64,000 bases of DNA from an uncultured Planctomycetales bacterium (GTDB lineage Bacteria > Omnitrophota > Gorgyraeia > Gygaellales > Profunditerraquicolaceae): the NCBI GenBank assembly GCA_964427405.1, contig CAYRUB010000002.1, positions 68,741 to 132,740 on the forward strand, written 5' to 3'. Both the position numbers and the translations under genes were made by a program. Position 1 is the stretch's first letter; each line of letters starts with the position of its first letter. This document shows, in pieces, positions 52,345 to 62,063 of this stretch. The notes beneath the pieces are model-generated. The model was not told the origin of the DNA, ran no database searches, and was given only the letters and a program-made list of their open reading frames with translations.

Positions 52345-53616
52345 ATGCTAGATATAAAATTCATTCGGGAAAATCAAGATTTAGTAAAGCAGGCAATGAA
52401 AGACCGGGCTTTAACGGTAGATATTGATAGCCTTGTTAAGATTGACGATAATCGTCGTAAAGCTTTAAGCGAGTTTGAGGAATTAGCAGCTAAGCGCAAT
52501 AAAGCCAATGATGAAATCAGCGTGTTGTTAAAAGAAAAAAAAGACGCGAAGAGCAAAATATTCTCAATGAAGGATATCTCAAAGCGTATTGGAGAGCTTG
52601 AGCCGCAAATAAAAAAGCAGGAAGTAGAATTAAATAAGCTGCTTCTAAGCATTCCCAATGTTCCGCATGCCTCTTTGCCGGTAGGAGATGCTTCCTGTAA
52701 TAAGGTTGTGCGTAGCTGGGGGGAGCCGAGGAAGTTTGATTTTAAGCCGCTTAGCCATATTGAGCTTTGCCAGGACTTAGATATCGTAGACTTTAACCGG
52801 GCTACTAAAATTACCGGTTCGAATTTTATCCTTTTCAAGGGTTGGGGGGCAAAACTTGAGCGCGCTTTAATTAATTTTATGCTTGATTTGCATACCAGCA
52901 AACATGGTTATACTGAAATATTCCCGCCGTTTCTGGTTAATCGCGCCTCTATGCTTGGCACTGGCCAGCTTCCCAAGTTGGAAGAAGATATGTATAAGCT
53001 TAAAGATGATGATCTTTTTCTTATTCCTACCGCAGAAGTACCGGTTACCAATATTTTCCGTGATGAAATTATAGATGAAGATAAACTGCCTATTTATTAT
53101 ACTGCCTATACAGCTTGTTTTAGGAGAGAGGCAGGCTCGTATGGTAAAGATACCAAAGGTTTGATCCGCGTGCATGAATTTGATAAGGTAGAGATGGTTA
53201 AATTTGTTAAGCCTGAAGACTCTTATGATGAGCTGGAAAAACTGGTAGTTAATGCAGAAGAGGTGTTGCAGCTTTTAGAGCTGCCTTATCGGCTGCTATT
53301 GCTTTCTACGCAAGATATAAGTTTTTCTGCCAGCAAATGCTATGACCTTGAGGCTTATACTGCAGGTGTAGATAAATGGCTTGAAGTATCCAGCTGTAGC
53401 AACTTTGAAAGTTTCCAGGCCCGTCGGGCAAATATAAGGATGCGCCGCAAAGAAAGTAAAAAGATAGATTTTGTGCATACTTTGAACGGTTCAGGTATTG
53501 CTTTAGCGCGCACGGTGGTAGCGATTTTAGAGAATTACCAACAGGAGGACGGCTCGGTTTTAATCCCTAAAGCCCTGCAGCCGTATTTAAATGGCCAAGA
53601 AAGAATTACCCGATAA
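52345..53616 (+). CDS. serS: Seryl-tRNA synthetase
   Basis: [14 protein letters not shown], an N-terminal coiled-coil arm, and class II motifs ([42 protein letters not shown]). Confidence 0.95.
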
Positions 53617-54298
53617 GAAATTACTCAAAGATAGCCCTTTATCAAGGGAACCTGCCGGTATCTCCGGAGATTTCTCCAGCAAGATATCTGGTCTATCCAG
53701 CAAGGCCTTTGGAATAATCAAATTTATTTTAGGTTTAGTTCTTTTGCCGTTTGTTTTCTCGACTGCAGTATCTTTTTTAAATGAGTTTGGCCTGGTGAAC
53801 AGGAATTTACAGACAATATTCTGGAGCGGGGCAATTAGTTTTTTGGTGATCTATCTATTTATTTGGGAACCGGCGTTAATTTACAATAAAGGCCACAAGC
53901 TGCTGGAGATTATGTTTAGTTTCTTTAAGCCCATGGTTAATGTAGCGCCTTTTCTTCTGCCTATATACGTGATCTTAGCATTTATTATTTACGGGTTGTT
54001 GTCGCTGGCAATCAAATCCAGCTGGTTGATTGAATATACGCTTTTTTTGGTTGGTTTTGCCGCTGTTTTACACCTGGTGTTTTCAGCTAAAACCATCCGT
54101 ACTAAGAAGGGTGATTTTTTAAAGGGAAATTACATATTTGGATTTTCCTTTATTTTTATCCTGAACCTTGCTTTGCTTGCCATGGGCTTTAGCCTGATTT
54201 TTAAGGAGTTCTCATTTGTTAATTTCTGCAATATTTCTTTTGGTATAGCCAGTAAAATATTTTACGCTGTTTTTAAACAGCTTTTTATATTTGGTTGA
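53591..54298 (+). CDS. Polytopic membrane protein, unknown function
   Basis: 235 aa with about six TM helices. Overlaps the serS 3' end by 26 nt. Confidence 0.45.
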
Positions 54299-54322
54299 GA
54301 ATAGGCCATAATCAGGAGAGCT

Positions 54323-54411
54323 GGAGAGGTCGCATAGCTGGTTGATTGCACCGGTCTTGAAAACCGGAAGGGGACTTGTTCCCCTCGCGAGTTCGAATCT
54401 CGCCCTCTCCG
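54323..54411 (+). tRNA. tRNA-Ser (TGA)
   Basis: Hand fold: GGAGAGG/CCTCTCC acceptor, anticodon stem CCGGT/ACCGG with loop CTTGAAA, long variable arm GGGGACTTGTTCCCC, T-arm GCGAG-TTCGAAT-CTCGC. No CCA. Confidence 0.9.
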
Positions 54412-54424
54412 TTTATTTTTTAAT

Positions 54425-55471
54425 ATGATAGGTGCTATGGCAGAGCGGATTAGAAATAGAAGGGCAAAGTTTCCGGAAGGCAAACAAAGATTGTTTATCT
54501 CAAGCGTTAATAAAAAATTAGGCGTGAGCCGGGATAAGCTATCTGAAATTTTCAATATAAACAGGCGTACATTAAGCGATTGGTGCAGAGAGAAATCCTC
54601 TATGAATTATAAGGTTCTTTTAGATTTGCAAACAAATTATAATATATCAATTCCAAAAGAAATCAAGATTTTACCGCAATTTTGGTACGTTAATAGAGCG
54701 GCTAAACTTGGAGCATTGATGCGGAATAAGCTTTATGGAAACTTTGGTACCCCCGAAGGTAGGCGAAAGGGTGGGCTTACTACGATAAGAAAGTTTATGC
54801 ATAGGCCTAAGTTAGCTAAGAAATTGGGGCTAAGAGTTATTAAAGATATAAAACGTCCTAAAAGTGGCTTGCAATTGTCTGAATTTGTAGGTATAGTATT
54901 GGGCGATGGAGGCTTGACAGATTATCAGCTAAGAATTACTTTTAATAGAGACACAGACGCTGAGTATGCGGATTTTGTGAAAGAGTTGATAAAAAAACTT
55001 TTTAAACTAGCGCCAAGAATAATTCACAAAAAGTCGGATAAGGGAAGTGATATTGCGGTTTATAGTAAGAACTTAGTGGAGTTTTTAGAGAGTCGCGGCT
55101 TAAAAAGAGGGAATAAAGTTAGAAATAAAGTAGATATTCCCCGCTGGATAAAGAAAAACAAAAGATTCCAATTGTCTTGTTTGCGCGGCCTGATGGATAC
55201 TGATGGTTCTTGTTATGCCTATTCGCATAACGTCAATAAGAAGAGATATCGTAATGTTGCGCTTTGTTTTACCAATGCTTCGGAAGCTTTATTAAAAAGT
55301 GTTTACCATATCTTTGATAGTGGTGGATATTATCCTCGTATGACCGGCAGGCGGGTTTATGTATACGGAGAAAACGAGATTAATAAATATTTTCAAAAAG
55401 TAGGCTCGCATAATTATAAGTATTTGGAAAATTATAGAAGATTCAGATCTTTGAAAGGTAAAGAAACCTAA
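54425..55471 (+). CDS. Free-standing double-motif LAGLIDADG endonuclease-like protein with N-terminal HTH-like region
   Basis: Two LAGLIDADG-type motifs (LSEFVGIVLGDGGLT and LSCLRGLMDTDGSCY) ~100 aa apart. A basic N-terminal ~140 aa contains VSRDKLSEIFNINRRTLSDWCR. No clear SD, so the start is uncertain (54425 or 54437). Confidence 0.75.
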   Translation: MIGAMAERIRNRRAKFPEGKQRLFISSVNKKLGVSRDKLSEIFNINRRTLSDWCREKSSMNYKVLLDLQTNYNISIPKEIKILPQFWYVNRAAKLGALMRNKLYGNFGTPEGRRKGGLTTIRKFMHRPKLAKKLGLRVIKDIKRPKSGLQLSEFVGIVLGDGGLTDYQLRITFNRDTDAEYADFVKELIKKLFKLAPRIIHKKSDKGSDIAVYSKNLVEFLESRGLKRGNKVRNKVDIPRWIKKNKRFQLSCLRGLMDTDGSCYAYSHNVNKKRYRNVALCFTNASEALLKSVYHIFDSGGYYPRMTGRRVYVYGENEINKYFQKVGSHNYKYLENYRRFRSLKGKET

Positions 55472-55476
55472 TTTTT

Positions 55477-55567
55477 GGAGGCGTCGCATAGCTGGTTGAG
55501 TGCACCGGTTTCGAAAACCGGAATGGTCGTAAGGCCATCGGAGGTTCGAACCCTCCCGCCTCCGCCA
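55477..55567 (+). tRNA. tRNA-Ser (CGA), CCA encoded
   Basis: Hand fold: GGAGGCG/CGCCTCC acceptor, anticodon stem CCGGT/ACCGG with loop TTCGAAA, variable arm ATGGTCGTAAGGCCAT, T-arm GGAGG-TTCGAAC-CCTCC, then G-CCA. Confidence 0.9.
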
Positions 55568-55626
55568 TAAACATTTTGGTGTGGAACAAATCCTCCCGTT
55601 TCCGATGGAATCTTTTTATGGTGCTA

Positions 55627-55651
55627 CAGGAGGGGCTGTTCCTGATTTTTT
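55627..55651 (+). terminator. Weak rho-independent terminator after the tRNA-Ser pair
   Basis: CAGGA-ggggctgt-TCCTG followed by ATTTTTT. Confidence 0.35.
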
Positions 55652-55677
55652 GAATTATTTGAGGAAGTAGGTAATAT

Positions 55678-56823
55678 TTGGCTTGCTTGAACATTAAGCA
55701 AAAATCCTGTTGTTTGCTCGCACTTTTCTTCCTATCCTTCATTTTTTCTCCCCTATTCGCCCAGGACTTTTCACCCGCGCAAGTAAGAGACATTTCAGAC
55801 CGCGCCTACGAACCGGCAGTGATTGAGCTCTTGGATCAGGCTAAAGAGTCTATTACTATTTCCATGTATAACATCAGCTTGGGCGTAAAGGAAAGGAATC
55901 CGGTAACCTTTCTTCTCCAGGATTTAATGGAAGCCCGCCAACGCGATGTCGCGGTTACATTTTACCTGAACACCAACTTCAGGGAAATTGATAAAGAGCC
56001 CCATCAGCTTATCAGGAGCCCATTCTTTAAGAAATTAGCGGATGCCGGATGCATTTTTCATCTCTTGCCTTCGCGCCTGCGCCTTCACGATAAACTTATC
56101 ATAGTGGATAGCCGTTTCGTGGTTGAGGGAAGCACAAATTGGTCCATCTCTGCCTTAAAGAGCAATCGCGAATCCGCCACACTGATAGATTCCCCTGGAC
56201 TTGCCGGAATAAAGTTATCGCGGCTTAAAGCTCTGCCATTAACCACCAAGCCAAAAGAAAAAGAGCCCCGCAGGGCATTATATCTGGAAACCCTGCCCGA
56301 CAGCATAGTTATCCCCGTGATTCTTCTCCTTGACGAGCGTTATTTTCCCAAAATGTTTACCAGCCAGGATTCCCGCAGTATGGATCTTTATCTACTGCTT
56401 CTATCCCATAGCCAGGTTGAGGGAAAATCAGGTTTCTTCGTTGAGTTGGAGAGTATGGCCCTTAGCCTGAATATGCCTGTTTCCTGGTTTGATTTTGGGC
56501 TTAGGCGCCAGGTAATCAGGAGCCTTAAAAAATTAGAGGATAATTACGGCTTGCTGCGCGTTAAATTTTTCCATAGTAAGGATGCCTGGGTTGAGCTTGT
56601 AAATTTTCCTCAAGAGCCCTTTAGCGCAAATTCTAAACTTATCACTAACCAAAAAATATCTTATCGCCTGAAATTCCTGCTTATGATAAAATCCCTGCTT
56701 GAATCGCAGGGAGAAGATTTGCATTCCATATCCAAACAGGAGATTGCCAGGCGTTTCCATATCCATCCTTGGACTGTAGGCGAAGCCTTCAAAGAGCTAA
56801 AACAATACGAAAAAGGCAGTTAA
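55678..56823 (+). CDS. Secreted PLD-superfamily (Nuc-like, single HKD) protein fused to two winged-helix-like C-terminal domains
   Basis: TTG start with GAGGAAG upstream. Signal peptide ...IFSPLFAQD. HKD motif LHDKLIIVDSRFVVEGSTNWS. The C-terminal ~170 aa has two wHTH-like segments (SRSMDLYLLLLS...IRSLKKLEDNYGLL and ISKQEIARRFHIHPWTVGEAFKELK). Confidence 0.65.
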   Translation: MACLNIKQKSCCLLALFFLSFIFSPLFAQDFSPAQVRDISDRAYEPAVIELLDQAKESITISMYNISLGVKERNPVTFLLQDLMEARQRDVAVTFYLNTNFREIDKEPHQLIRSPFFKKLADAGCIFHLLPSRLRLHDKLIIVDSRFVVEGSTNWSISALKSNRESATLIDSPGLAGIKLSRLKALPLTTKPKEKEPRRALYLETLPDSIVIPVILLLDERYFPKMFTSQDSRSMDLYLLLLSHSQVEGKSGFFVELESMALSLNMPVSWFDFGLRRQVIRSLKKLEDNYGLLRVKFFHSKDAWVELVNFPQEPFSANSKLITNQKISYRLKFLLMIKSLLESQGEDLHSISKQEIARRFHIHPWTVGEAFKELKQYEKGS

Positions 56824-56886
56824 ATGTAATTCCATTATCTTTTTAGTTAATTTTTGATATAATGGGATTCGCTGTAATAGCCGCAA

Positions 56887-58419
56887 TTATTCTACTAAAT
56901 TTTGGAGAGGTGGCAGAGTGGTCGAATGCGCACGCCTGGAGAGCGTGTGACCCGCAAGGGTTCCAGGGTTCGAATCCCTGCCTCTCCGCCAACAAGGATA
57001 GGGCGCTGCTTCAAACAGGGGACGGAAGGTGCCTTCCGTCGAAAAATTGAGGCGGCGCTCTTTTAAAATAAAGTTCGAACCAATCTTTTCCAGAAATTCT
57101 TTCTGGGATTCTAAATTTCCCTCTTCAATCGCGCAACGGGCTCTATTTAAAGAAGTTACAAGTTCTTTGGCCGGTTCGAACCAATTATTTGCCCCAGCAG
57201 CAAAATCCTGCATAGATTCCTGCAATTCCTTCTTATCGTTAATAAAAGCTTCCTTCTTAGCCTGATATTCTTCAAGCGTCAGAGTGCCTTCAAGGTAAAC
57301 ATCAATAAGCTTATTAATCTTAGTTTCAATCGTCTTAACCTTAACTTCAAGATTTTGCTGCTGGGGCAACGATGATTGGACACCGCTATTTCTGTCTTTT
57401 TCTAACTCTTCTAAAATCTTCTTTGTCCAATCATCGCACAAAGAAACTTTTTGAATGAAGGATTTGATCTGCGCGGCAAGCGCTTCTTCACGCACATACT
57501 TCTGATTGCAATTTGTAAGGCGCTTGGTGCAGCGGTAATAAGTATGTCCTTTTTGGATTTCAGCGGTTATTGACCTTCCGCATTCACCGCAACGCATTAG
57601 CCCCCTGAAAACAAATTTAAATTCTTCTTTCTTGGGCTTGCCGCGCCTAAGCATTACTTCCTGACACTTATCAAAAAGTTTCTTTGTGATAATTGGTTCG
57701 TGTGTACCTTCATACATCTCGCCTTTATAGCGAAATACGCCGTAGTAGAGAGGATTTTGCAGCATAAACTGGTAGTCGCTAACAGATAAAGGCTTATCTT
57801 TTCTGCCGGTCATACCAAGGGTGTTTATCTTACGGCGTATTTCGCTAAGAGGATAAGAGCCCGTTGCGTAGATTTCAAAAGCTTTCCTGATGAAAGGAGC
57901 TTTGCCCTCATCCAAGATAATCGCGCGGGTCTTGCGGTCGTTAAGGTATCCAACAGGCGCCCATTGAGGCCAGATACCTTTGCTTAACTTGAGGCGGATG
58001 CCACGCCTGATATTCTCTGAAAGGGCATCTATATAATACTTACTCTGCCCGAAAGCGATAGAGAGCATAAACTTACCTTGGGCGTTATTATCAAGGCGGT
58101 AGGTAGGAAACTTCAAGTCTTTAATTAAGCCACGATCCAAAAGGTAGATGATGCGCCCGCCGTCTATGGAATTGCGCGCCAATCTATCCGGGTGCCAAGC
58201 CATTATTCCTTCGGCTTCACCTTTTTCGATAGCTTTAATCATATCGTTAAAAAGCAACCGCCCGGGCTCTTTGGCAGTTTTCGCTTCAACTAATTCCTTA
58301 TAAACAAAAAGATTCTCCCGCTTGGCAAAGGCGCGCAATTCCACAAGCTGGGCCTCAATGGATAATATTTGTCTGTCATCATCATCGGTGGACTTTCGGG
58401 CATAGATAAAGTAACGCAT
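56887..58419 (-). CDS. Large serine recombinase
   Basis: 510-codon ORF. MRYFIYARKSTDDDDRQILSIEAQ (catalytic Ser region), a resolvase domain, a recombinase domain, a zinc ribbon CGECGRS...YYRC...C, and a coiled-coil segment. SD AAGGAG lies 8 nt upstream. The last ~60 codons are encoded by IR-L and the antisense of tRNA-Ser, so the true C-terminus is uncertain. Confidence 0.85.
   Translation of the reverse strand: MRYFIYARKSTDDDDRQILSIEAQLVELRAFAKRENLFVYKELVEAKTAKEPGRLLFNDMIKAIEKGEAEGIMAWHPDRLARNSIDGGRIIYLLDRGLIKDLKFPTYRLDNNAQGKFMLSIAFGQSKYYIDALSENIRRGIRLKLSKGIWPQWAPVGYLNDRKTRAIILDEGKAPFIRKAFEIYATGSYPLSEIRRKINTLGMTGRKDKPLSVSDYQFMLQNPLYYGVFRYKGEMYEGTHEPIITKKLFDKCQEVMLRRGKPKKEEFKFVFRGLMRCGECGRSITAEIQKGHTYYRCTKRLTNCNQKYVREEALAAQIKSFIQKVSLCDDWTKKILEELEKDRNSGVQSSLPQQQNLEVKVKTIETKINKLIDVYLEGTLTLEEYQAKKEAFINDKKELQESMQDFAAGANNWFEPAKELVTSLNRARCAIEEGNLESQKEFLEKIGSNFILKERRLNFSTEGTFRPLFEAAPYPCWRRGRDSNPGTLAGHTLSRRAHSTTLPPLQNLVE
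56904..56991 (+). tRNA. tRNA-Ser (GGA), CCA encoded
   Basis: Hand fold: GGAGAGG/CCTCTCC acceptor, anticodon stem CACGC/GCGTG with loop CTGGAGA, variable arm ACCCGCAAGGGT, T-arm CAGGG-TTCGAAT-CCCTG, then G-CCA. The last 6 nt are part of IR-L. Confidence 0.9.
56986..57076. repeat. IR-L: left copy of a 91-bp perfect inverted repeat
   Basis: Exact reverse complement of 58527-58617 (compared base by base). Contains the palindrome GACGGAAGG-TG-CCTTCCGTC at 57021-57040. Confidence 0.95.
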
Positions 58420-58471
58420 AGGGCAAAGCTCCTTTCTCCCAAATAGGGAAGAGGGAAATTTAGAATCCGTG

Positions 58472-58508
58472 CTTTTTATTTTGGGCCTCCATTACCCAAA
58501 ATAAAAAG
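58472..58508. other. Perfect 14-bp AT-rich hairpin in the recombinase leader
   Basis: CTTTTTATTTTGGG (58472-85) / CCCAAAATAAAAAG (58495-508) with loop cctccatta. Lies between the recombinase start and IR-R. Confidence 0.7.
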
Positions 58509-58526
58509 TACAAAAAGATTGGTGAA

Positions 58527-58617
58527 GAACTTTATTTTAAAAGAGCGCCGCCTCAATTTTTCGACGGAAGGCACCTTCCGTCCCCTGTTTGAAGCAGCGC
58601 CCTATCCTTGTTGGCGG
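58527..58617. repeat. IR-R: right copy of the 91-bp perfect inverted repeat
   Basis: Exact reverse complement of 56986-57076. Palindrome GACGGAAGG-CA-CCTTCCGTC at 58563-58582. Confidence 0.95.
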
Positions 58618-59453: not shown

Positions 59454-59525
59454 AGTATAAAAAATAATAGAAACGGTCATATTGCTCGTTACTGGAAACA
59501 ATAAGGAAGATTGAAAGGTAGAAGT

Positions 59526-62063
59526 ATGCCGAGAGGAAAAGCAAAACAGAGCAAAGACATAAAAGTTGAGACATATACGCATAAAGGCAAGAAGCGCAGG
59601 AATAATCCCCACGTTGGCCTTGTCTCAAGCGCAACGGATAAATTAAACGGTCGGACGAAATATAAACACGATCCGTATATAGATCCTTATCTTAGCTGGG
59701 CTGGCAAGGCCGAGGGCATGAGTCTTGAAGTTCAGAATGTTAGTCTCCATATCCATGAGCGCATTGACTCCAAGCGCATCGTCAAAGCTTTTTTAAATAA
59801 AAAAGAACAGAAACAATTTCAGCTCGATTTGTTTGAACAGCCGGACAATGACCCTCCGTTAAACAAGGCCATTGACTTCTATAAACACGAGCAAGATTGG
59901 GCAAACCGACTAATCGCCGGTGATTCACTTTTGGTTATGAATTCTCTCCTCAAGAAAGAAGGAATGGCTGGCAAGGTCCAAATGGTCTACATCGACCCGC
60001 CGTATGGAATTAAATACAATTCCAATTTTCAGCCGTTTGTTGATGACACATCAATGAAGCAAGGCGATAAGGATGGTGATTTAGTTGTTGAGCCTGAAAT
60101 GATTCAGGCATTTAGAGACACATGGGAATTGGGTGTGCATTCATACTTAAACTATCTTCGAGATCGGATTCTATTGGCAAAAGATCTCCTCAGTAAATCT
60201 GGGAGTATTTTTGTTCAAATATCGGAGGAAAATGTTCACAGTGTAAGAGCTATCCTCGATGAATTATTTGGAGTCGAAAACTTTGTCAGCCAAATTAATA
60301 TTAAACGCGCATCGATGATGTTCGCAAAAAAGCTATTAAATAATGCGGTTTATTACGTGATATGGTACGCAAAAAATAAAGAAGAAGTTAGATATCACCA
60401 ATTATTTACCGACAAAGATGAGCAATGGTTTGCGGATTCTGCAGGCGCACATCTTAGGGCGGAAAATCCTGTGAATGGAGAAACCATCTTAGTTCCTGCA
60501 GATATGCGAAAGAATATGAAGGAGTTTAAGATAAAATACCCCGATTGGAAGTTATACAGATTGCTAGGGGTTAATGCTCAAGGTACAGAAAAAAGAGAGC
60601 CATTTGAATTTGATGGAAAAAGTTTTATCCCGCCAAGTGGTACTCAATGGAAATATTCATATGATGGCTTAAATATTCTAAAACAGAAAAACCGTCTTGA
60701 AATTGAGAAGAATAGTTTAGCATGCAAAGTTTATCTCTCAGATTATCCTGTAGAGTCTATAAATAGTTTGTGGGATGGAATTGGTGCGGCTGGGGATAAA
60801 ATTTATGTGGTTCAAACATCTGACGAAATAGTTAAAAGATGTCTTTTGATGACTACCGATCCCGGTGACCTTGTTTTTGATCCTACCTGCGGTTCTGGAA
60901 CAACAGCCTATGTTGCCGAGCAATGGGGACGACGCTGGATCACCTGTGATACTTCACGTGTTGCCGTTACTCTTGCCAAACAAAGATTAATGACTTCGAA
61001 ATATGATTATTACCAGTTAGCACATCCTACCGAGGGCATAAAGAGCGGATTTAAGTATAAAACCGTTCCTCATGTCACGCTTGGTTCAATCGCAAATAAT
61101 GAGCTACCCTCGCAAGAAACTCTCTATGATTCACCGCCTGTTGAGAAAGGCAAAGTACGAGTTACGGGACCATTTACTGTTGAAGCAGTGCCATCGCTTC
61201 GTGTGAAGCCATTTGACGGTAACGAGCCAAAGGTTGAAGCCACAAGCGAACAATTAGCACGCATGGGTGAAACCGGCAAGCAGGTTGAATGGCGTGATGA
61301 ATTAAAAACTACCGGGATTCGTGCGACTGGCGGCAAAGTCATACAATTCTCTCGCCTTGAGCCGATGGTTGCTACGAGATTCTTGCATGCCGAGGGCGAG
61401 ATCCTTGACGCTGGCGGTGAAAATAAACGAGCATATATCAGCTTTGGTTCAGATTTTGGCCCACTCGAGCAGAGGCAAGTTGAAGAAGCTATAAAAGAAG
61501 CGCGTTCTCTAAAAAATAAACCGCACTTTGTAATATTTGCCGCATTTCATTTTGACCCTGAAGCGGCCAAAGACATTGATCAGATAAACTGGCCGGGGGT
61601 AAAGATTCTTAAGGCACAGATGAGTGTTGATCTCTTGACTAAAGATCTACGCAAGAACCGGTCTTCTAGCCACAGCTATTGGCTTATCGGTCAGCCGGAT
61701 GTGGAAGTCACCAAGCATAAAGATGGAAACTACAAGGTAAGAGTAAATGGTTTTGATTATTACAATCCGCTTACTGGCGAAATTGAATCTAAAGGCACTA
61801 AGCACATTGCCATGTGGTTTTTAGATACCGACTATGACGAGAGGAGCCTTTATCCCGATCAGGTCTTTTTCCCTGAGAGCGATTCAAAGCGCGACTGGTC
61901 AAAATTGGCCAAGGCATTGAATGGCGAGGTTAATGAAGACCTTCTGGATAAATTCTCAGGCGTTGAATCTCTGCCATTCGCTGGTGGTGAAAATAAAAAG
62001 ATCGCGGTTAAGATTATCGATAACCGCGGGATTGAAGCCTTTGTAATTAAAAAACTGGATTAA
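59526..62063 (+). CDS. mod: Type III restriction-modification DNA methyltransferase (Mod), beta-class N6A/N4C
   Basis: Motif IV VYIDPPYG precedes motif I FDPTCGSGTT (beta order). Conserved N-terminal HDPYIDPYLSWAGK segment and a long C-terminal extension. Start taken at ATG 59526; the tracked TTG at 59511 has no spacing to an SD. Confidence 0.85.
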   Translation: MPRGKAKQSKDIKVETYTHKGKKRRNNPHVGLVSSATDKLNGRTKYKHDPYIDPYLSWAGKAEGMSLEVQNVSLHIHERIDSKRIVKAFLNKKEQKQFQLDLFEQPDNDPPLNKAIDFYKHEQDWANRLIAGDSLLVMNSLLKKEGMAGKVQMVYIDPPYGIKYNSNFQPFVDDTSMKQGDKDGDLVVEPEMIQAFRDTWELGVHSYLNYLRDRILLAKDLLSKSGSIFVQISEENVHSVRAILDELFGVENFVSQINIKRASMMFAKKLLNNAVYYVIWYAKNKEEVRYHQLFTDKDEQWFADSAGAHLRAENPVNGETILVPADMRKNMKEFKIKYPDWKLYRLLGVNAQGTEKREPFEFDGKSFIPPSGTQWKYSYDGLNILKQKNRLEIEKNSLACKVYLSDYPVESINSLWDGIGAAGDKIYVVQTSDEIVKRCLLMTTDPGDLVFDPTCGSGTTAYVAEQWGRRWITCDTSRVAVTLAKQRLMTSKYDYYQLAHPTEGIKSGFKYKTVPHVTLGSIANNELPSQETLYDSPPVEKGKVRVTGPFTVEAVPSLRVKPFDGNEPKVEATSEQLARMGETGKQVEWRDELKTTGIRATGGKVIQFSRLEPMVATRFLHAEGEILDAGGENKRAYISFGSDFGPLEQRQVEEAIKEARSLKNKPHFVIFAAFHFDPEAAKDIDQINWPGVKILKAQMSVDLLTKDLRKNRSSSHSYWLIGQPDVEVTKHKDGNYKVRVNGFDYYNPLTGEIESKGTKHIAMWFLDTDYDERSLYPDQVFFPESDSKRDWSKLAKALNGEVNEDLLDKFSGVESLPFAGGENKKIAVKIIDNRGIEAFVIKKLD

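Follow-up and report, generated by a model that had tools for sequence, protein, structure and literature searches.

A Free-Standing LAGLIDADG Endonuclease Gene beside Serine tRNA Genes in Uncultured Bacteria: A Probable Homing Element

Introduction

Why does an intact gene of the LAGLIDADG endonuclease type lie between two complete serine tRNA genes? The question is raised by a stretch of 64,000 nucleotides (nt), referred to here as the window, from an uncultured bacterium placed in the Omnitrophota (assembly GCA_964427405.1, contig CAYRUB010000002.1, positions 68,741 to 132,740 of the forward strand). An intact open reading frame (ORF) of 348 codons, 54425..55471 on the plus strand, occupies the space between its tRNA-Ser(UGA) and tRNA-Ser(CGA) genes. 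Most known homing endonucleases of the LAGLIDADG type come from the introns and inteins of organelles, archaea and phages; typically they make a site-specific double-strand cut in a target of about 20 bp and leave 4-nt 3′ overhangs. The original prediction, made from the letters of the window, had read the ORF as a two-motif LAGLIDADG protein and had offered two explanations, a mobile gene homing into tRNA-Ser spacers or a domesticated DNA- or RNA-binding factor. The comparative analysis described below favors a modified form of the first: the ORF is probably a functional, free-standing LAGLIDADG homing endonuclease gene, selfish and mobile, which belongs to a lineage specialized on tRNA-Ser genes.

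Results and Discussion

Nuclease Fold and Active Site

Both motifs are present at the sequence quoted in the original prediction, and the homology is supported by Pfam LAGLIDADG_3 (PF14528) with 26.7 bits, above the cut-off of 22.5 (E 6.8e-6). All NCBIfam matches fall on the endonuclease portions of archaeal proteins that contain inteins, and a profile of 32 homologues matches the TliVMA intein endonuclease (E 1.7e-7), aligning LAEFIGIVLGDG with LAEFLGYLIADG. Among the structural matches of the AlphaFold (AF2) model, whose predicted local distance difference test score is 87.9, is I-Tsp061I (E 2.7e-11, target-normalized template modeling score 0.76). Further matches are intein endonucleases, I-DmoI, PI-PfuI, I-AniI (1p8k) and the bI3 maturase (2ab5), with the complex of WhiA and RNA polymerase at rank 44. 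The chain contains the two motifs and the doubled α-β-β-α-β-β-α fold of a single-chain LAGLIDADG enzyme.

The presumed catalytic residues are strictly maintained. D161, D260 and K231, as well as the glycines of both motifs, are invariant in all 78 family proteins from three phyla, and D258, T259, D260 and G261 of the second motif are each kept in 78/78. An acidic residue is found at the C-terminal end of both motifs, as is characteristic of LAGLIDADG enzymes, in which it belongs to the metal-binding active site, and the acidic pair is not degenerate. The ratio of nonsynonymous to synonymous substitution rates (dN/dS) among six close relatives is 0.12–0.25, which corresponds to purifying selection. 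Collectively, the Pfam, profile and model matches, the invariant residues and the dN/dS values indicate that the gene is intact and under selection and that its nuclease active site is retained.

Regarding the N-terminal ~140 residues, the helix-turn-helix (HTH)-like segment noted earlier is detected again, and several weak signals agree on an Xre-type HTH. When the N-terminal part is searched on its own, Pfam HTH_3 is matched with E 8e-4, under the gathering score; the family profile matches the XRE protein 3op9 (E 0.006); and the model places helices at residues 20–32, 36–42, 47–54 and 62–72. A conserved basic linker, YGNxGTxEGRRKGG, is located C-terminal to the HTH and presumably contacts DNA. 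No Pfam family matches this motif, and a NUMOD3-like identity considered for its GTPEGRRKGG part was dropped, as Pfam lends it no support.

Two kinds of variant protein were observed within the family. In L131 (4749-5774, equal to protein P0038 over the aligned stretch), GVMLGGGYI replaces GIVLGDGG; the first-motif aspartate is lost (G for D161), the second is kept, and this member may be a nickase or an inactive copy. Short forms of ~257–276 residues lack the HTH and keep the basic linker and the nuclease core. They are found in L054, L055, L072, L076 and L080 (before tRNA-Ser gct), in L093 (3937-4756) and in L161, they form a clade of their own after tRNA-Arg(ACG) in Omnitrophota, and they co-occur with a full-length copy (L001 with L076, L008 with L054).

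Association of the Family with tRNA-Ser Genes

A scan of one genome per species yielded at least 546 loci, of which the best 80 were inspected. These 80 derive from Omnitrophota, Nitrospirota (including Nitrospira chromosomes) and many Patescibacteria, with several records under other, probably unreliable, names. A tRNA-Ser gene adjoins the endonuclease gene in every one of them (80/80), and likewise in one locus on a viral contig. The position is also narrowly defined: in 73 of the 80 the stop codon lies between −55 and +38 nt from the 5′ end of a tRNA-Ser on the same strand. In 75 loci a same-strand tRNA-Ser follows directly 3′ of the gene, and all four anticodons found there are well represented (gct 29, cga 23, gga 14, tga 9). 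The exceptions remain close to a tRNA-Ser: it is divergent and 67–69 nt upstream in L032, L040 and L053, convergent in L071, 82 nt downstream in L077 and 78 nt upstream in L065, while in L066 the ORF reads through the tRNA. A control set of 22 distantly related LAGLIDADG genes on viral contigs shows no tRNA within 3 kb. Consequently, the earlier wording, in which the gene homes into tRNA-Ser spacers, has to be changed: the associated unit is the tRNA-Ser gene itself, whatever its anticodon, in three phyla.

The family comprises 343 clusters at 50% identity (E ≤ 1e-30). The homologues of the window protein that bear a name are all from Omnitrophota, and the window probably derives from that phylum. 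Some genomes carry two copies at different tRNA-Ser genes (L001 and L076, L008 and L054), and two are found within L093. In the protein tree, the clades track both phylum and anticodon. The gene order in Nitrospirota is serS, endonuclease gene, tRNA-Ser(UGA); in Omnitrophota it is serS, membrane-protein gene, tRNA-Ser(UGA), endonuclease gene, tRNA-Ser(CGA). Literature searches of incomplete coverage, which also took in Omnitrophica, the candidate phyla radiation and Nitrospira, returned no description of an association of LAGLIDADG genes with tRNA-Ser, and the text of a 2026 survey of tRNA introns in Patescibacteria nowhere mentions tRNA-Ser.

A phage or plasmid vector for the family was considered and rejected. 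No full-length phage homologue was found, plasmids not having been searched, and IMG/VR contains one partial family member, on the viral contig mentioned above, with tRNA-Ser(gga) 3′ of it.

Two further features of these loci deserve description. The first is the arrangement of the host genes. In Omnitrophota (window 52345-56991 and L002–L036), serS stands directly 5′ of a serine tRNA cluster in the order UGA, CGA, GGA, often followed by tRNA-Arg and the GCU gene; serS next to tRNA-Ser(UGA) also occurs in Nitrospirota, which points to a conserved synthetase–tRNA neighborhood. The second is the extension of the ORF into the tRNA. In many relatives the stop codon lies 14–55 nt inside the downstream tRNA-Ser (among others L006, L007, L008, L011, L013–L015, L020, L022, L029, L030, L035, L037, L043, L046, L055, L058, L060, L062, L064, L066 and L078), and in L066 the frame continues for 190 nt, through the whole tRNA. 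Cutting of such transcripts by RNase P would take away the stop codon, and gene callers report tRNA-encoded C-terminal tails for proteins such as P0033 and P0116.

Distribution among Close Relatives

A metagenome search anchored on the upstream membrane-protein gene (53591-54298) recovered 80 related loci, 49 of which contain both the UGA and the CGA tRNA. The spacer between the two is empty in 28 of the 49, where it measures 7–140 nt and only 7–11 nt in 15 loci; it carries the endonuclease gene in seven and unrelated inserts in 14. Precise empty sites therefore exist and the gene is not a constant part of this position. In a tree of the membrane protein, used as a host marker, the nearest neighbor of every carrier that has a sister is a non-carrier. 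This applies to six of the seven carriers, the pairs being window/L083, L093/L092, L089/L091, L110/L119, L114/L099 and L148/L143; the seventh carrier, L131, has no sister.

The flanking tRNA appears to travel with the gene. Five carriers, namely L081 (the window's own contig), L089, L093, L110 and L114, share the tRNA-Ser(UGA) variant GGAGAGGTCGCATAG..., while four of their five sisters (L083, L092, L091 and L119), in which the gene is absent, carry tRNA-Ser(UGA) GGTGGGGTGGCTGAG... The exception is L099, sister of L114, which combines the carriers' variant with an empty spacer. When the window is compared with its sister L083, homology extends to 54292 (83% identity) and resumes at 56901 (97.5%); both tRNAs, the ORF and a PLD-like gene have been replaced in between. 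The suggestion that this part of the cluster is of separate origin thus stands in that 54293-56900 is foreign with respect to L083, with the tRNA-Ser(UGA) variant as its clearest co-traveler. The marker proposed for it, the encoded CCA, is less telling: only tRNA-Ser(cga) and tRNA-Ser(gga) among the seven tRNAs of the window encode CCA, as had been stated, but in close relatives its presence differs between alleles of the same tRNA, which makes it a weak marker of origin. A strict tie between the endonuclease lineage and a single variant of the downstream tRNA was also considered and rejected, the window, L001 and L003 having GGAGGCGTCGCATAG and L002, L093 and L110 having GGAAGGATGGGAGAG.

The gene is furthermore discordant with serS. 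At 86% serS identity, the identity of the endonuclease gene is 80% (L002), 77% (L003), 52% (L005) or 44% (L019). Presence or absence at a fixed site and an incongruent phylogeny, by which the mobility of LAGLIDADG genes is recognized, are both observed here. A homing element that carries its flanks along as it spreads would be expected to leave such patchy carriers, co-inherited flanks and discordance with serS.

This distribution bears directly on the possibility of a domesticated host factor, in which the protein would be an HTH-LAGLIDADG DNA- or RNA-binding regulator of the serS/tRNA-Ser locus, kept for host benefit. The model would be WhiA, the product of a conserved host gene, which has a C-terminal HTH and has lost its catalytic acids. 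The two proteins share the LAGLIDADG fold and an HTH domain, and in favor of domestication are the tight and very wide linkage to tRNA-Ser (and to serS in Nitrospirota and Omnitrophota), the added HTH, the purifying selection, the protein clades that follow phylum and anticodon, and the WhiA complex among the structural matches. Nevertheless, we regard it as improbable. Only 7/49 close-relative loci carry the gene, with carriers scattered among non-carriers. In addition, the gene shows none of the characteristics of a WhiA-type regulator (lost acids, C-terminal HTH, universal presence in relatives): its motif aspartates and K231 are invariant, its HTH is N-terminal and its distribution is patchy. 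Gene identities that disagree with host markers, paired copies at different tRNA-Ser genes and the persistence of short forms without HTH also argue against it. Between the two explanations offered originally, precise empty sites, scattered carriers, intact acids and purifying selection favor the mobile gene. Neither outcome named beforehand as refuting it was observed, be it a gene fixed in all relatives with degenerate catalytic residues or a profile search without LAGLIDADG homology.

Genes of other kinds were seen in the spacers of relatives: a 259-residue 4Fe-4S/flavodoxin-like gene, a membrane-protein gene, a LigT-like gene and a radical-SAM-like gene (L084/L085 5302-6154, L091 5301-5988, L120 4704-5686, L012 2444-3802).

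tRNA-Ser 5′ Fragments and Scars

In many lineages, a 5′ fragment of a tRNA-Ser gene, typically 16–26 nt long, is found just upstream of the ORF start or overlapping it. When a position-weight matrix of tRNA-Ser nt 1–16 was compared with 7,736 control windows, the fragment score reached at least the 99th percentile of the controls in 22 of 71 loci and at least the 95th in 33, in few fixed registers. Among the 56 strong matrix matches that 1 Mb of loci contains outside annotated tRNAs, 20 fall within 130 nt upstream of the gene. These figures carry an ascertainment bias, because the matrix favors canonical tRNA-Ser sequences. The fragments end mostly at nt 16–26, most commonly at nt 21–22.

The second copy in L093 provides the clearest recent example. 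Here the resident promoter and nt 1–26 of tRNA-Ser(GGA) have been kept, with an upstream flank 96% identical to window 56825-56926; a short-form endonuclease gene follows, and then a complete but different tRNA-Ser(GGA) with 82% identity. In the lineages whose protein begins with MAE, the fragment is now coding: GGAGNT-ATG-GCN-GAG corresponds to tRNA nt 1–15, with nt 7 changed to create the ATG. Nowhere in the 64 kb of the window is the 11-mer TGGCAGAGYGG present except at the start of the ORF and in the tRNA-Ser(GGA) D-arm, against 0.06 occurrences expected, and the window fragment (54431-54448) shares its register with the clearer fragments of L001, L066 and L068. The sequence upstream of the ORF was also searched for direct repeats of the downstream tRNA of the same locus. 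As a general feature these were rejected, p ≤ 0.01 being reached in only 6 of 57 loci; this is attributable to the resemblance of the fragments to canonical tRNA-Ser rather than to the adjacent variant.

Scars without the gene also occur. They consist of the initial 17–21 nt of a tRNA-Ser gene, a conserved TCCCGC...GCGGGA hairpin, 70–170 nt of sequence and then a complete variant tRNA-Ser (L137 5216-5305; L129 from 5188; L133 3060-3231; L134 from 1917; L020 2149-2249 and 2695-2782; L009 2425-2626). In L137, L129, L133, L134 and, twice, L020, the nt 1–21 break is the same as that of the fragments. Such scars may have been left by the endonuclease, or they may represent a miniature insertion element of a separate kind. 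No Rfam family matches the hairpins, and both a known RNA family for them and a hidden intron or ribozyme around the ORF were rejected, as Rfam finds tRNAs only.

It could also be supposed that the gene is passive cargo in a recombination hot spot, moved by exchange between repeated tRNA-Ser genes or by elements that attach at tRNA-Ser, such as those with a large serine recombinase, its expression being ensured beside the tRNAs. Several observations are in line with this: the 4Fe-4S/flavodoxin-like, LigT-like and membrane-protein genes share the UGA–CGA spacer in relatives, a tRNA 5′ duplicate flanks non-endonuclease cargo in L012, gene-less scars exist, a large serine recombinase repeatedly overlaps tRNA-Ser 3′ ends, and the two flanking tRNAs of the window share 51 nt at 88% identity (first 51 nt of tRNA-Ser(CGA) against 54322-54372). 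However, passive carriage would predict neither adjacency to tRNA-Ser in 81 of 81 loci, across three phyla and four anticodons, on its 5′ side and within tens of nt, nor invariant nuclease residues, and the recombinase works from the other end of the tRNA, the 3′ end; we give this explanation only a slim chance. A role directed at RNA, as a maturase-like or processing factor for the co-transcribed tRNA-Ser precursor, is very improbable: some LAGLIDADG proteins are RNA maturases, I-AniI and the bI3 maturase are among the structural matches and the ORF overlaps the tRNA 5′ end in many relatives, but Rfam detects no intron or structured RNA beyond the tRNAs, non-carriers have normal tRNAs, the gene is patchily distributed and the residues for DNA cleavage are conserved.

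Proposed Mechanism

Taking into account that the gene lies 5′ of a tRNA-Ser of any anticodon, often after a tRNA-Ser 5′ fragment, its target is expected inside the tRNA gene. At tRNA-Ser loci that lack the gene, the enzyme would cut within or close to the 5′ part of the tRNA gene, the best guess being the D-loop region at about nt 16–26, and recombinational repair from a carrier would copy the gene together with flanking tRNA sequence. The product would be a tRNA-Ser 5′ fragment, then the ORF, then an intact tRNA-Ser. Since an intact tRNA-Ser would be regenerated on insertion, the essential tRNA would never be lost. The old 5′ fragment would be recruited as a translation start (MAE... in the window). 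Transcription of the window gene would include its two tRNAs, and tRNA processing would then set the message free; the genes of Patescibacteria would instead use a promoter box of their own, at a spacing that suits a leaderless mRNA. The N-terminal HTH and the basic linker probably extend DNA recognition.

A bolder version sees the family as a natural "gene drive" on an essential tRNA, in which the cut in the D-loop (~nt 16–26) leads to replacement by a linked functional tRNA-Ser allele. The 16–26-nt 5′ scar would be turned into the translation start of the element and, with an abutting −10 box, would form a leaderless unit in Patescibacteria. The retained tRNA-like fragment could be an operator for autorepression through the HTH, as for I-TevI at its own promoter, and the same cleavage would have left its footprints in the gene-less scars of L137, L129, L133, L134 and L020. 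With the tRNA-Ser downstream of the endonuclease promoter, an imprecise deletion would cost the host an essential tRNA, which would make it a "hostage". Taken as a whole, with its scar, hostage, operator and footprint parts, this version is tentative and rather doubtful.

Several points weigh against the interpretation of the gene as a tRNA-Ser-specific homing endonuclease. The inspected sample consists of the best 80 of at least 546 genome loci. The largely phylum- and anticodon-wise protein tree would also fit long residence with occasional transfer. Unrelated cargo genes occupy the same tRNA-Ser spacers in relatives, and in L012 a 45-nt duplicate of the 5′ end of tRNA-Ser(CGA) stands before the radical-SAM-like cargo, so the region is recombinogenic whether or not an endonuclease is present. 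No fragment is found in Nitrospirota or in the Omnitrophota "MSR" type, in which the start lies 9–12 nt after tRNA-Ser(UGA). We infer every step of the mechanism, including the cleavage site and the immunity of carriers, and cleavage, target site and transcript are predictions. The complete downstream tRNA, moreover, offers no explanation for that immunity. The fragment at the ORF start and the tRNA-Ser(GGA) of the window have the canonical D-arm 11-mer in common, so that a simple model with the canonical D-arm as target predicts self-cleavage. Immunity through unusual D-arms was considered, but at positions 9 and 13 gene-adjacent tRNAs do not differ significantly from other tRNAs (Fisher p = 1.0, 0.27 and 1.0); a trend in D-arm variants concerns the UCN isoacceptors only and is post hoc. 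D-arms with A9/A13 are also present in ordinary Firmicutes tRNA-Ser.

Comparison with Known Systems

The window family shares its fold and the acidic pair at the motif ends with the monomeric LAGLIDADG enzymes of archaeal introns and inteins (I-Tsp061I, I-DmoI, PI-PfuI, TliVMA), and in both cases presence/absence polymorphism is found at a conserved RNA-gene target. Unlike these enzymes, it is encoded outside any self-splicing intron or intein, has an N-terminal extension of ~140 residues with an Xre-type HTH and a basic linker, lies 5′ of an intact tRNA-Ser without interrupting a gene, and is bacterial (Omnitrophota, Nitrospirota, Patescibacteria).

By its organization, the system appears to work most like the free-standing endonucleases of phage intronless homing, notably T4 SegB. 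This enzyme is encoded by a free-standing gene in a tRNA gene cluster and drives the inheritance of that region (PMC2330249). In both systems an intergenic endonuclease gene lies in a tRNA cluster. In phage intronless homing the gene stands next to a conserved gene that has the cleavage site in gene-less genomes, and flanking markers are co-converted; here the gene adjoins a tRNA-Ser, which would contain the target, and the flanking tRNA-Ser(UGA) allele is co-inherited. The differences are evident as well: SegB is a GIY-YIG enzyme of a phage, whereas the window family is of the LAGLIDADG type, resides on bacterial chromosomes, appears specific for a single tRNA identity (Ser) and would have recruited a tRNA fragment as start codon.

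Mobile endonuclease ORFs of mitochondria, for example at Allomyces atp6, bring along a second copy of their target gene's end, and the end they displace persists as a remnant. As is proposed for the present family, insertion regenerates an intact target copy and the old fragment stays beside the ORF. In the mitochondrial case the 3′ end of a protein gene is duplicated; in the present family the duplicated part is the 5′ end of an RNA gene, and the remnant is upstream and provides the start codon.

The family adds to the LAGLIDADG proteins a sizable free-standing bacterial group with an extra HTH, located, at every locus inspected, beside one essential gene class in three mostly uncultured phyla. 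If the proposed reading is true, a selfish nuclease would colonize an essential RNA gene without an intron, with the gene regenerated and the displaced fragment recycled as a start codon. This would help to explain the mosaic tRNA-Ser alleles and the many small insertions in the tRNA-Ser clusters of these phyla, would supply natural meganucleases whose targets are related and highly conserved, and would flag a systematic annotation issue, namely ORFs that run into tRNA genes and 5′ tRNA fragments.

Locus Organization and Candidate Expression Signals

The features of the locus are collected in Table 1. The tRNAs are intact and there is no intron or intein context, as originally described: Rfam finds no intron or RNA family other than tRNAs in 53500-57500, with scores of 57.1 bits for tRNA-Ser(UGA) and 55.5 bits for tRNA-Ser(CGA) (cut-off 29) and of 55–58 bits for all three tRNA-Ser. 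The first ATG of the ORF is separated from tRNA-Ser(UGA) by 12 nt with the ARAGORN end or by 13 nt with the Rfam end (54411), and 5 nt lie between its stop codon and tRNA-Ser(CGA), in agreement with the gaps of 13 and 5 nt given before. That first ATG exists as predicted, but the start conserved in relatives is the second one, at 54437, which yields a protein of 344 residues and lies exactly 24 nt past the tRNA in six loci (window, L089, L093, L110, L114 and L131). The GC content of the ORF is 35.9%, compared with 41.9% for the window.

Table 1. Features of the tRNA-Ser(UGA)–endonuclease–tRNA-Ser(CGA) locus (window coordinates; residues in 348-aa numbering)
Feature	Position	Strand	Basis or remark
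Weak sigma-70-like promoter match, TTTATA-17-CATAAT	54284..54312	+	Consensus match; ends 10 nt 5′ of tRNA-Ser(UGA)
tRNA-Ser(UGA), variant GGAGAGGTCGCATAG..., without encoded CCA	54322..54412	+	ARAGORN, Rfam
A/T-rich 24-nt spacer, tRNA to conserved start	54413..54436	+	Spacing kept in six loci
TATGAT, −10-like hexamer, inside the 24-nt spacer	54423-54428	+	
Non-conserved first ATG, inside the 24-nt spacer	54425	+	
GGTG motif, inside the 24-nt spacer	54431-54434	+	2 nt 5′ of ATG 54437
Decayed tRNA-Ser 5′ fragment GGTGCTATGGCAGAGCGG, compare GGAGAGTTGGCAGAGCGG	54431..54448	+	Gives ATG 54437 and M-A-E-R codons
Endonuclease gene, 344 aa (348 aa from ATG 54425): HTH, basic linker, two-motif LAGLIDADG core	54437..55471	+	
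Xre/Cro-type helix-turn-helix, ~aa 20–80	54482..54664	+	Pfam, profile, model
Conserved basic linker motif YGNFGTPEGRRKGG, aa 104–117	54734..54775	+	Conserved in family
LAGLIDADG motif 1, EFVGIVLGDGG	54881..54913	+	Presumed catalytic D161, codon 54905-54907
LAGLIDADG motif 2, CLRGLMDTDGS	55178..55210	+	Presumed catalytic D260, codon 55202-55204
TTTTT spacer, stop codon to tRNA	55472..55476	+	5 nt
tRNA-Ser(CGA), CCA encoded, immediately 3′ of the gene	55477..55567	+	ARAGORN, Rfam
Terminator-like hairpin and T run	55627..55654	+	Consensus match only; 60 nt past tRNA-Ser(CGA)
tRNA-Ser(GGA), third tRNA-Ser, CCA encoded	56904-56991		ARAGORN, Rfam

The window gene is probably co-transcribed with its two tRNAs, by read-through from tRNA-Ser(UGA), and freed by tRNA processing. 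A candidate tRNA–ORF–tRNA transcript would start at the promoter-like match and end at the terminator-like hairpin. Both signals are candidates only, as promoter and terminator scans of the region give matches no more common than in shuffled sequence. The earlier remark that no Shine–Dalgarno sequence or promoter is visible holds insofar as none of the matches is individually above chance; GGTG, TATGAT and the weak promoter match are nonetheless present.

In the Patescibacteria gct clade (L039–L079), all 18 loci have a −10-like hexamer, mostly TAnAAT, that abuts the 6-nt GGAGNT before the ATG and is located ~36 nt upstream of ORF codon 13. A TGn extension is found in 10 of the 18 and TTGAC at −35 in several. 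From this abutment a leaderless mRNA is predicted, whose first codons would derive from tRNA-Ser nt 7–15.

Neighboring Elements in the Window

Between tRNA-Ser(CGA) and tRNA-Ser(GGA), 55678-56823 encodes a protein of 381 residues that contains a PLD-like nuclease domain (PLDc_2, E 2.6e-16) and whose N-terminus resembles a signal peptide. The gene is found in some relatives only (L001, L081, L092 and L093), and in the sister L083 the two tRNAs are 35 nt apart. On the minus strand, a gene for a large serine recombinase of 510 residues (56887..58419) runs into the 3′ end of tRNA-Ser(GGA). Two perfect inverted repeats bracket this gene, one of 91 nt (56986-57076 / 58527-58617) and an inner one of 21 nt (57106-57126 / 58448-58468). 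The same recombinase, accompanied by an inverted partial copy of its C-terminal coding region, is present at tRNA-Ser genes in L076, L116, L127, L135 and L136, and the region 56887-58617 may be an invertible segment or an integrative element that attaches at tRNA-Ser. Just past the inverted repeats, 59511-62063 encodes a protein of 850 residues with an N6/N4 DNA methylase domain (E 3.4e-32), which may be cargo of the recombinase element.

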